From Escherichia coli (GTDB taxonomy: Bacteria; Pseudomonadota; Gammaproteobacteria; Enterobacterales; Enterobacteriaceae): DNA of 64,000 bases. Position 1 is the first letter of the stretch. The number at the start of each line of letters is the position of its first letter. The stretch is from the NCBI RefSeq assembly GCF_050920415.1, contig NZ_CP169309.1; one strand, written 5' to 3'. Position numbers and translations under genes: made by a program. This document shows, one piece after another, positions 20,891 to 41,394 of this stretch. The notes under the pieces were generated by a model that was given only the letters and a program-made list of their open reading frames with translations, was not told the DNA's origin and did not search any database.

Positions 20891-20953
20891 ACAATTGACT
20901 CGCGGGGAAATCGTTTACGGAGTCTTCATCCTGGCACTTTTTTATGCTGCTGA

Positions 20954-37519: not shown

Positions 37520-40066
37520 TCACGAAAAATACTGCTGTAATAGCGGCGTGTCGTGATCCTGATTGGCAGGCGGCATGTTACCGATAGATTTGGTGCGGAA
37601 CGGAATCACCTGTTCACGACCATCAACCTTCACAATCTGATAGAACTGCGGCAGGTTGAAGTTGATGAAGCTTGAGCCGTAGGTAAAACGGTCGTGCGAT
37701 GACGAGTAGAAGCGACTGACGTCACGCACCAGCTCCTCTTTGCTGCCTTCGCAGTGGTGATACACCTCAACCCGGTTGCTTTCGTCGAGAATGTAGATAT
37801 TAAAGCCATTCTCGTCTTGCGTTTCTTCGAAGAAGAACTGGATGATCCCTTCGCTGGCAAAGCCGTCCACCACCGCCGGTAATTTGACGTGATTGGTTTC
37901 AACCTGCACTGACAGGCCGTGCAGTTTGTTATGCGAAATAGCGCCATAAAACTCGATGGCATTTTCCAGTTTCTGTACCGATACATTCAGCCGTTCGAAG
38001 AACAACCCCCAGGTTTGACCAGAAACGCGCAGCGCCTTGAAGCGCCCTGTTTCCTGACGGGTGCTGGACAGACGCAGTTCAATACACTCAGAAACCAGTT
38101 GCTGCACGCGAGTACGGATTAATCCGCGCAGATGCTGGCTGTAGCAGAAGACTTCCACGCTATCTGGCGGTGCGGCGTCCTGATGCATTTTGCCGAGAAT
38201 AGTTTTCAGGGCTTCGATCATCGATTGCTCGCCGTTGAAGTGCAGCGTACGCACTTCGTTCCACGAGTTGCGGTACAGCAGGTCCACGCTACCTACCAGG
38301 CAATTTTGGTTTTCGCCAAAGCTGAAGACGTCCAGCTTACGGAAATCAAAATGCACCACCTGATTGCGGAACGCAGCTGTCGGGTCATATTCCAGGTTAA
38401 CGATAATCGCCAGATGGCGAATTTCACACGGGCTGTAGAGCGCTTTTGGCGTCGGTGCAGGCAGGCGCAGCGGGAAATGGTGCGACACATCGGCGACCAT
38501 CTCCTGCAACTTAGGCAAATCGACAATGCCGTTGCCTTTAATATACAAGCGGGTGCGCGAGGTCAGCAGGCCGTTAAACCATGCCCACGCCACCAGTTTA
38601 TTAAGGTAACGGTTATATTCCAGCGGCTGATGGCTGATGATCGACTCAATATTTGGCGCGCGGTTATACAGATACCAACCTGAACGGTTAGCCCGGCCCG
38701 GCGGCACATAAATAAAGGTCAGATTCGGTTCCGAGAGATCGGGCGAAATCTGCGGGTTTACCAGCGTCACTTTACCTGGCAATGCTTCAAACGCGGCGTA
38801 CAGTTTACGCGTCAGCACGCCGATATCCTGCGGACTGGCAGAGACGCTAAGGTTATTGCGACGCGCAAAGCGGATCAGATTGCGGTAGCTCTGCATCATT
38901 GCATCGAGCAGTTCGTTGTGCGCCTCGCGCACCTGATCAATCTTCCAGTTAGCGCGGTTATCGAGCATTGCCAGACGAGCATCGTCCCATTCCCACTCTT
39001 TCACTAACTGGGTTAGCACTTCACGACGCCAGCCTACACAGGCGCGTTCACGGCTGAGTTTTTCGCACACTTTTAAATAGAAGCAGCGACGCACTAAATC
39101 CAGACGGGTGAAATCTTCAATCGCCGTCAGGTACTCAGTAACACGCTCCAGCATCATGCAGTACGGATCGAGACCAAACGATACAATCTCGCCGTCGTGC
39201 AAACGCTGTTTGATATCTTTCGCCAGCAGACGTGGGTTCGGGTATTCCCAGGAATAGGCTTCCAGCAGTAGTGTTTTCAGCACCGCTTTGTATGGGGAAT
39301 CGATACTCTTATAGAGCTGCCAAAGGCTGGCACCAAAGTACTCTTCGGCAGAAAGTGAGCTTAAGCCGCCGAGATCCAGCCATTCATTAGGAGTAAGCAC
39401 GCCCTGCGCGTAAAGCGTCATCACATAGTCGTCGTAATGCTCTTCTTCGTCACACGGCACCATATTCCACAGAATACGTTTACCGGCGAGACGCACGGCG
39501 GTACGATAAAATTCGTCAAGCAGCAGTATATGCTGGGTGGAGCCACAATCTTCGCCCCCCAGGCTGCCGCTTTCATTATGACGGAAGCGATTTTCATCAA
39601 TCAGGAAGAAGCTAACTTCCACGCCCAGCGAGGCGGCCCAGCTTTCCAGCAGGCTGCATTTACGTTGTAGTAACTGGCGCTCTTCGCTATCAAGCCAGGA
39701 TTGATGACAGACCCAGATATCCAGGTCAGAGGAACAACTTTGCCCTACGGACGAGGTGCTGCCCATGGTGTATACACCAGTAATTGGAAGCTCACCTTTC
39801 GGCGGATCCTGTACTGACATTCCACGATACAGTTCAAGCTCGTTCAGGTAGTGGCGTTGAGTTTCATCAGGCGTGTAAAGGCAAATGCCTTTGGGAACGT
39901 TACCATCAAGGTAGCCCGGCATTAGCGGATGGTGATAGTGCAACAATGTCGGCAGTAGACTGTAGACCTGTTGGAATGCAGGCCCCATAGCAGCAAGCGC
40001 GCGATCCACACGCAATTGATTTATGGCATCCAGTCTCTGTTTCAGAGTCTCAATATAGAGGTACAA
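37520..40066 (-). CDS. cyaA: Adenylate cyclase, 848 aa, TTG start
   Basis: [35 protein letters not shown]...; first codon is TTG as known for cyaA. Confidence 0.95.
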
Positions 40067-40452
40067 GACGTATCGCCTGATTTGCTACCCGTCATGACTG
40101 TGATTCCGCCAACATCAACGGTAACACGCGGCATTCGGGATATTTCGTATGTCAAAGGTAACCGTTACCACTTTTCGCGCCTGGTTTTTTTAGTTTCACG
40201 ACGAAAAAATGGTCTAAAACGTGATCAATTTAACACCTTGCTGATTGACCGTAAAGAAAGATGCGCTACATACAAGTGTAGCACCGTTTATTCTCTGTAA
40301 ATTCCTTATTACGACGGCGTGAAACGCCTGTCAGGATCCACTGCCAGACCTCATTTTTCGGTTTGCGCAGGCGTCTACGTTTCACCACAACACTGACATC
40401 GCTCTGGCAAGGATGTTAGGATGGACCACGGATGATAATGACGGTAACAAGC

Positions 40453-41394
40453 ATGTTAGACAATGTTTTAAGAATTGCCACACGCCAAAGCCCACTTGCA
40501 CTCTGGCAGGCACACTATGTCAAAGACAAGTTGATGGCGAGCCATCCGGGCCTGGTCGTTGAACTGGTACCGATGGTGACGCGCGGCGATGTGATTCTTG
40601 ATACGCCGCTGGCGAAAGTAGGCGGAAAAGGCTTATTTGTAAAAGAGCTGGAAGTCGCGCTCCTGGAGAATCGCGCCGATATCGCCGTACATTCAATGAA
40701 AGATGTGCCGGTTGAATTCCCGCAAGGTCTGGGGCTGGTCACTATTTGCGAGCGTGAAGATCCTCGCGATGCATTTGTGTCCAATAACTATGACAGTCTG
40801 GATGCGTTACCGGCAGGCAGTATCGTCGGGACGTCCAGTTTACGTCGCCAGTGCCAACTGGCTGAACGCCGCCCGGATCTGATTATCCGCTCCCTGCGCG
40901 GCAACGTCGGCACTCGCCTGAGCAAACTGGATAACGGCGAATACGATGCCATCATTCTTGCCGTAGCCGGACTAAAACGTTTAGGTCTGGAGTCACGCAT
41001 TCGCGCCGCGTTGCCACCCGAGATTTCTCTTCCGGCGGTAGGACAAGGTGCGGTCGGTATTGAATGCCGCCTTAATGATACTCGCACTCGCGAGCTGCTT
41101 GCCGCGCTGAATCACCACGAAACTGCACTGCGTGTTACCGCCGAACGCGCCATGAATACCCGTCTCGAAGGCGGATGTCAGGTGCCAATTGGTAGCTACG
41201 CCGAGCTTATTGATGGCGAAATCTGGCTGCGTGCGCTGGTCGGCGCGCCGGACGGTTCGCAGATTATTCGCGGTGAACGCCGCGGTGCGCCGCAAGATGC
41301 CGAACAAATGGGGATTTCGCTGGCAGAAGAGCTACTGAATAACGGCGCGCGCGAGATCCTTGCTGAAGTCTATAACGGAGACGCCCCGGCATGA
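40453..41394 (+). CDS. hemC: Porphobilinogen deaminase, 313 aa
   Basis: Track frame 40432..41394; start set at [27 protein letters not shown]... Confidence 0.9.

Follow-up and report, generated by a model that had tools for sequence, protein, structure and literature searches.

The spacer between hemC and cyaA of Escherichia coli is the classical, already known divergent control region of the two genes; knowledge of its main parts dates from the 1980s, and it is largely ordinary. What is added here is that a palindrome with published GalR binding overlies the foot of a conserved hairpin in the cyaA leader. The region as a whole is best explained jointly, with a probability of roughly 0.8, by a P2 promoter repressed by CRP, a limit set on translation by the UUG start, an operator bound by GalR and a leader hairpin, within a spacer transcribed on both strands.

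In the window (the whole stretch of 64,000 nucleotides that was analysed), the spacer occupies exactly positions 40067–40452, i.e. 386 bp, according to both the list of open reading frames and the RefSeq annotation. The cyaA coding sequence (848 aa; same two sources) lies on the − strand at 37520–40066, and the RefSeq annotation places the hemC start on the + strand at 40453. A 701-bp stretch around the spacer has matches in 5425 of the 5426 complete E. coli genomes, the match reaching 100% in one of them. Window positions (w) were converted to MG1655 coordinates (m, NC_000913.3) as m = 3991153 + (40066 − w), U00096.2 coordinates being those of NC_000913.3 minus 1977. For comparison between species, 80 orthologous loci were collected, one per species and Enterobacteriaceae throughout; 79 were usable and the spacer alignment comprises 78 species. 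Divergent hemC is the neighbour of cyaA in all 79 usable loci, with spacer lengths of 283–418 bp.

Promoter, start codon and transcription on both strands

Within the spacer, the first-pass annotation had read a CRP-like pair of half-sites (cGTGAtcaatttAACAc, 40220–40236) and suggested that it could mediate autoregulation by cAMP-CRP. This suggestion is upheld: the 16-mer CGTGATCAATTTAACA (40220–40235), core of the cAMP-CRP binding site at 40217–40238, is the very motif beneath the hemC/cyaA CRP ChIP-seq peak of ETEC H10407 (PMC4287617), and it lies over the putative −10 and start of P2. The core, CGTGA-N6-TAACA, agrees with TGTGA-N6-TCACA at 8 of 10 positions. Matches to this consensus with at most two mismatches occur at chance frequency (24 in the 64-kb window versus 25.5 expected), so that the match by itself is weak evidence. 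The site is invariant or nearly so across the 78 aligned Enterobacteriaceae species and is present also in Serratia-like and Vibrio loci; together with P2, it falls in a block, about −240 to −135 relative to the TTG, that is almost invariant in the same alignment.

On the − strand, the sequence reads as a P2 promoter at 40228–40255, with a −35 TTTACG (40255–40250), a 16-bp spacer and a −10 TTAAAT (40233–40228), from which a start near 40222–40220 is inferred. The centre of the CRP site lies at about −5.5 from this putative start and the site covers the −10 and the start, a position that would fit repression of P2. Repression of cyaA P2 by cAMP-CRP was reportedly described by Aiba in 1985, by Mori and Aiba in 1985 and by Kawamukai in 1985, and the CRP footprint obtained by Aiba at P2 is said to extend from about −20 to +11. 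Gene, site and position over the −10 and start are all the same here, without any difference from that system. The literature describes CRP as a repressor of cyaA, and the −10 of Yersinia cyaA is covered by CRP. P2 would be the main source of cyaA transcripts, and cAMP-CRP bound over its −10 would repress cyaA and provide negative feedback on cAMP synthesis, a published feedback to which our own analysis speaks through position and conservation only. A search for the P2 start in the supplementary data of two studies (Ettwiller 2016; Kim 2012) returned nothing, and in the list of transcription start sites in the supplement of PMC7373196 a distal start at 40445 stands alone in the cyaA direction, with no P2 start.

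At window 40245–40255, the putative P2 −35 TTTACG of the − strand is abutted by a TTGACC on the + strand, which may serve as −35 to a hemC promoter with its start near 40283. Such back-to-back P2 and hemC promoters, if real, would account for the invariance of the block. PhoP, considered as an input to the cyaA promoter, was set aside, as the PhoP-cAMP effect in Salmonella runs via Mg2+ and ATP (PMC12714265).

The second known brake on cyaA is its TTG start codon (40066–40064, − strand), on which the list of open reading frames, the RefSeq annotation and the species alignment agree. The first-pass annotation had called this codon translation-limiting, and rightly so: TTG stands at the aligned cyaA start in 79 of 79 Enterobacteriaceae species, and adenylate cyclase synthesis from UUG, GUG and AUG is given as 1:2:6 (Reddy et al. 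1985, in the form quoted in PMC5499595). The codon is the same as in the UUG-limited translation of cyaA described by Reddy, Peterkofsky & McKenney (1985), and no difference from that case was found. At the translation step, this universal UUG would keep cyaA output low, in line with the published effect.

A small predicted hairpin of the initiation region (AGGCG-AUA-CGUCU, 40062–40081, − strand), the sole helix returned by RNAalifold for the full leader, pairs an SD-like AGG with the first U of the UUG start. Its sequence is nearly invariant, with zero compensatory changes across species, and it could contribute to low cyaA translation. In one Vibrio locus (L091), an AAGG/CCUU pairing is possible at the equivalent position. 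Further downstream, Term-seq places two cyaA 3′ ends at MG1655 3991231 and 3991346, both within the open reading frame and published as Rho-dependent premature termination (PMC7815308). These ends convert to window 39988 and 39873 (− strand), 78 and 193 nt into cyaA, and fit a weak UUG translation that leaves the early cyaA reading frame open to Rho.

The distal start in the cyaA direction, an A at 40445 on the − strand, corresponds to U00096.2 3988797(+), with first bases ACCGTCATTATC (supplement of Huang et al. 2020, PMC7373196). The hemC ATG is only 8 nt away, and the likely −10 of this distal start, TAACAT (40458–40453), overlaps it. In the opposite direction, the same supplement lists a hemC-direction start inside the cyaA coding region, at window 39968 on the + strand (U00096.2 3989274(−)). 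In stationary phase, the dsRNA cluster of the hemC/cyaA pair ranks third in abundance among those of coding genes (PMC7373196); this cluster, 3988343–3989253, corresponds to window 40899–39989, and is explained by the starts at 40445 and 39968, since the cyaA and hemC mRNAs overlap over the whole spacer. Transcription of the spacer on both strands would yield dsRNA cleaved by RNase III, as published. The hemC/cyaA pair belongs to the overlapping divergent transcripts described as RNase III substrates (Lybecker 2014; Huang 2020); its overlap is not known to have regulatory effects.

Three further elements were noted on the hemC side. A perfect inverted repeat, GCTACA-N6-TGTAGC (40265–40282), is nearly invariant in the 78 species; it lies upstream of P2, where the hemC transcription unit begins according to published data, and was flagged as terminator-like on both strands in a scan. 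We know of no protein that binds it. The overlap of hemC and cyaA transcripts reported by Conway ends at U00096.2 3988959, i.e. window 40283. Closer to hemC, a consensus scan found a promoter-like site on the + strand (CTGACA-18-TAGGAT with TG, 40393–40422), whose two hexamers are listed for the spacer in a SELEX study of the RpoD holoenzyme (PMC3946193). The hemC leader also carries a long imperfect inverted repeat, GTGAAACGCCTG ... CAGGCGTCTACGTTTCAC (40319–40385, + strand); a folding energy of −51 kcal/mol (z = −1.8) is predicted for the 178-nt leader, and positions 40319–40385 are poorly conserved between genera.

The palindrome and the GalR operator

The palindrome GGTAAC-C-GTTACC, which had been placed at about 40157–40169 in the first reading and left there without a function, is present at exactly these coordinates as a perfect inverted repeat with 6-bp arms. 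It forms the core of a GalR/GalS-type operator at 40156–40171 (− strand GTGGTAACGGTTACCT, + strand AGGTAACC.GTTACCAC), recognized from published ChIP data and a matrix. In the GalR ChIP-chip experiment of Qian et al. 2016 (PMC5110547), the hemC/cyaA region has its peak probe at 3991055 with a score of 12.4, the fifth highest of 15, and cyaA is among the six GalR sites for which these authors obtained ChIP-qPCR confirmation using another tag. The site they deduced at hemC/cyaA, GTGGTAACGGTTACC, was assigned by MEME and not by footprint (PMC5110547). It is identical to the − strand of window 40157–40171, and the centre of the operator converts to NC_000913.3 3991055.5, which coincides with the centre of the ChIP-chip peak probe.

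Compared with the 16-bp hyphenated dyad GTGNAANC.GNTTNCAC, the operator matches 9 of 12 specified positions and has the central CG; at positions 3, 5, 9 and 15, which are genetically critical in that mutations there kill the operator, all four match. The remaining three mismatches explain why the site was missed by the in silico screen of Qian and colleagues, which allowed two (PMC5110547). With a leave-one-out matrix derived from the other 18 bound sites, the cyaA operator scores 19.8 bits, within the 14–22 bits spanned by bound sites, and it is the top match among the approximately 128,000 window positions scanned. The runner-up, at 15.2 bits, is GGGAAATCGTTTACG at 20905–20919 (+ strand), probably inside the pldB/yigL coding region and absent from the published GalR ChIP regions.

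Within the species, the operator is nearly fixed: a 32-mer around it is exact in 5420 of 5426 E. coli genomes, versus 5352 for a control 32-mer taken from the variable leader. Beyond E. coli, a GalR score of at least 14 bits is reached by E. albertii and by one other Escherichia with a broken central CG, and by no others; scores of about 19.7 bits are confined to E. coli and E. albertii, and the approximately 70 other species score at most 12.3 bits. Two genomes of the Escherichia lineage are altered in the operator, one by a change of the central CG to CA and one by a 1-bp deletion, a sign that constraint on the site is weak within the genus. Four changes separate the family consensus AAGGGTAACGGTTATTT from the E. 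coli sequence AGTGGTAACGGTTACCT, three of which go towards the GalR consensus, and these Escherichia-specific substitutions lift the GalR score from about 10.7 to 19.8 bits. From sequence comparison, the strong GalR site looks like a gain in the Escherichia lineage.

It may be asked whether the palindrome is simply a chance feature without a function of its own. Palindromes of such size do occur at chance frequency: 30 perfect ones with 6-bp arms and a 1-nt spacer were counted in the 64-kb window and, for spacers of 0–10 nt, about one is expected per 386 bp and two are observed between hemC and cyaA. Moreover, in the species alignment the perfect palindrome is conserved within Escherichia only. 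Its axis (base 40163) is also half a base pair away from the GalR dyad, which lies between 40163 and 40164; the perfect repeat thus arises as a by-product of two offset half-sites, and its symmetry is not the one that is recognized. However, the same region is the top GalR-matrix match in 64 kb, GalR binding to it has been published and validated, and its core is kept family-wide and paired in a covarying helix, so that we consider a purely fortuitous palindrome very unlikely. As for a part of the palindrome in cAMP-CRP autoregulation, for instance as a second CRP site, we give it next to no credence: nearness to the CRP site speaks for it and nothing more, whereas GGTAACCGTTACC fails TGTGA-N6-TCACA at up to two mismatches and the ChIP-seq CRP motif is located at 40220–40235. 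Neither the palindrome nor the CRP motif is significant from sequence alone, and their reality rests on published binding and on conservation. Of the two elements singled out in the first reading, the CRP site thus stays where it was placed, under the ChIP-seq motif, and the perfect palindrome is conserved only as far as Escherichia extends.

The hexamer GGTAAC/GTTACC occurs in four copies in the 386-bp spacer (at 40120, 40157, 40164 and 40443), whereas its frequency over the window predicts about 0.2. The copy at 40117–40127 (− strand GTGTTACCGTT) resembles a GalR left half-site, in a stretch that is not conserved. GntR, Cra, PurR, FadR, CpxR, OmpR, DnaA, IHF and FNR were compared by eye, through their consensus sequences, with the conserved core, and none fitted.

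The GalR operator invites comparison with the OI of the gal operon. The galE OI, GTGGTAGCGGTTACA, differs from the cyaA site at 2 of 15 positions, and the cyaA site likewise lies within the transcribed region, at about +58; the gal OI is reportedly centred at +53.5. In contrast with the gal OI, the cyaA site is confined to Escherichia and has no OE-like partner for HU-dependent looping. A matrix scan for a second operator of the gal type found no independent one in the spacer, where the next best match (8.3 bits) overlaps the same site, and the highest-scoring match in the vicinity (10.9 bits, 39892–39906) is about 265 bp away inside cyaA. With the GalR/GalS regulon (Weickert & Adhya; Qian et al. 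2016), the cyaA site shares GalR binding in vivo, but no regulation was detected at cyaA, and cyaA has no role in galactose metabolism. In a galR deletion, the new targets, including cyaA, showed little or no regulation under standard conditions, and the authors propose condition-specific control or an architectural role for the new GalR sites (PMC5110547). In the mechanism that we propose, the LacI-family operator GTGGTAAC.GGTTACCT, centred at about +58 of the P2 transcript, is the element occupied by GalR in vivo, and GalR and/or GalS would most likely block or modulate P2 transcription weakly and under certain conditions, an effect lifted by D-galactose.

The leader hairpin and its possible roles

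On the − strand, the first nucleotides of the cyaA P2 leader form a conserved hairpin of about 59 nt (40163–40221), identified by folding each species separately and by covariation. It consists of three helices, CGUU (overlapping the end of the CRP half-site) with AACG, ACC with GGU, and a U-run followed by CGUC with GACG followed by an A-run, which together enclose a variable loop. The family retains the sequence GGTAACGG(T/C)T, and the GGTAACG core is conserved family-wide because it is the 3′ foot of this hairpin.

Several observations support the structure. The hairpin is predicted in nearly all of 63 distinct leaders, each folded alone. In a structure-blind MAFFT alignment, 84.8% of cells are paired versus 36–62% when the partners are slid; 8 of the 18 hairpin pairs vary on both sides, a count attained by none of 500 shuffles, and G·U wobbles favour the cyaA-sense strand by 115 versus 39. 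A covariance model gives a single match in the window, the hairpin itself, at 73 bits, as well as weak matches in Serratia-like loci. The leaders of these loci (L083, L087 and L085) show the same hairpin design with other helix sequences, followed by U5–U7. Folding energies are less telling: the mean z over the 63 leaders is −1.9, with 30 below −2; the E. coli hairpin alone (−15.9 kcal/mol, z = −0.9) is unremarkable and the full E. coli P2 leader has no unusual stability (z = +0.25). Nor does energy choose the strand, as the sense strand is the more stable in only 40 of the 63 leaders. RNAalifold on the full leader missed the hairpin at 40163–40221, the variable loop of which is misaligned by MAFFT. 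An Rfam scan of 39800–40700 at E ≤ 1 returned no family, save a spurious lncRNA match at E = 0.99. To our knowledge, the cyaA leader hairpin has no description as an RNA stabilizer or attenuator.

Directly 3′ of the hairpin lies a pyrimidine- and U-rich tail (40153–40162, − strand), GUUACCUUUG in E. coli and GUUAUUUUUG in Salmonella and Citrobacter. It contains on average 6.2 U per 10 nt over the 63 leaders, and at least six in 48 of them; the E. coli tail has only five because the TT-to-CC change that completes the palindrome interrupts the U-run. A promoter built on the conserved TTGACA/TTGAAA that follows the hairpin was also considered and rejected, no consistent −10 being found across species.

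The hairpin of the first approximately 60 nt would most plausibly protect the 5′ end of the mRNA or damp transcription. A comparable case is the ompA leader, for which Emory, Bouvet and Belasco are said to have described, in 1992, a stabilizing 5′-terminal stem-loop. The cyaA hairpin likewise begins within a few nucleotides of the putative mRNA 5′ end, and differs from that of ompA in the U-rich tail that follows it and in that the 5′ end itself is deduced from the P2 reading. We infer that protection of the 5′ end is at least as likely as a role in termination.

A terminator proper has nevertheless to be weighed. Hairpin and tail could act as a working intrinsic terminator that stops some P2 transcripts at about +65 to +75, releases a short leader RNA and sets the level of cyaA. 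A long hairpin followed directly by a U-rich tail is found in most genera, the run reaching U7 in Serratia (locus L083) and in an Enterobacter-like genome, and published northern blots show short 5′ cyaA fragments. Against termination here, E. coli Term-seq lists no 3′ end at the hairpin tail, the Rho-dependent ends at 3991231 and 3991346 being those detected (PMC7815308); the stem has a weak base, made up of CGUU/AACG and an internal loop, and the hairpin is only a few nucleotides from the putative 5′ end, which leaves no space for an upstream antiterminator. We thus hold a working terminator to be unlikely. Somewhat different is the view that the RNA level alone matters, GGUAACG being the foot of a hairpin that acts as a 5′ stabilizer or attenuator, and occupancy by GalR a by-product without output. 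The core is indeed kept in approximately 70 species that lack a GalR-grade site, covariation and strand-specific wobbles back the hairpin, the design of hairpin plus U-run recurs in Serratia-like loci, and expression was unchanged in the galR deletion. This last point is open to the objection that, with galR alone deleted, GalS might hide an effect. Furthermore, three of the four Escherichia substitutions go towards the GalR consensus, with the rise in matrix score noted above, the TT-to-CC change weakens the U-tract, which would be odd were the RNA role alone selected, and GalR binding in vivo is strong compared with other sites. A function confined to the RNA is therefore possible, if on balance improbable. 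Finally, the two codes may be superimposed on a single 16-bp stretch: the Escherichia GalR/GalS operator would have been written by four substitutions over an older hairpin common to the family, at its foot and tail, adding an input from galactose to cAMP to an RNA stabilizer or attenuator. We regard this double coding as doubtful; if it is true, the gain of the operator would have cost part of the U-tract.

Place in the control of cAMP

The joint reading, in which a CRP-repressed P2, the UUG limit, the GalR-bound operator and the leader hairpin stand together in a spacer transcribed on both strands, remains the one we prefer. The region sets the level of adenylate cyclase, and hence of cAMP, in E. 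coli, and is as such central to catabolite control. If galactose sensing reaches cAMP through the GalR site, it would be one more input to a textbook circuit that is otherwise unchanged. The same holds for the hairpin: control of the stability or read-through of the cyaA mRNA, if true, would add one further input and leave that circuit as it stands.
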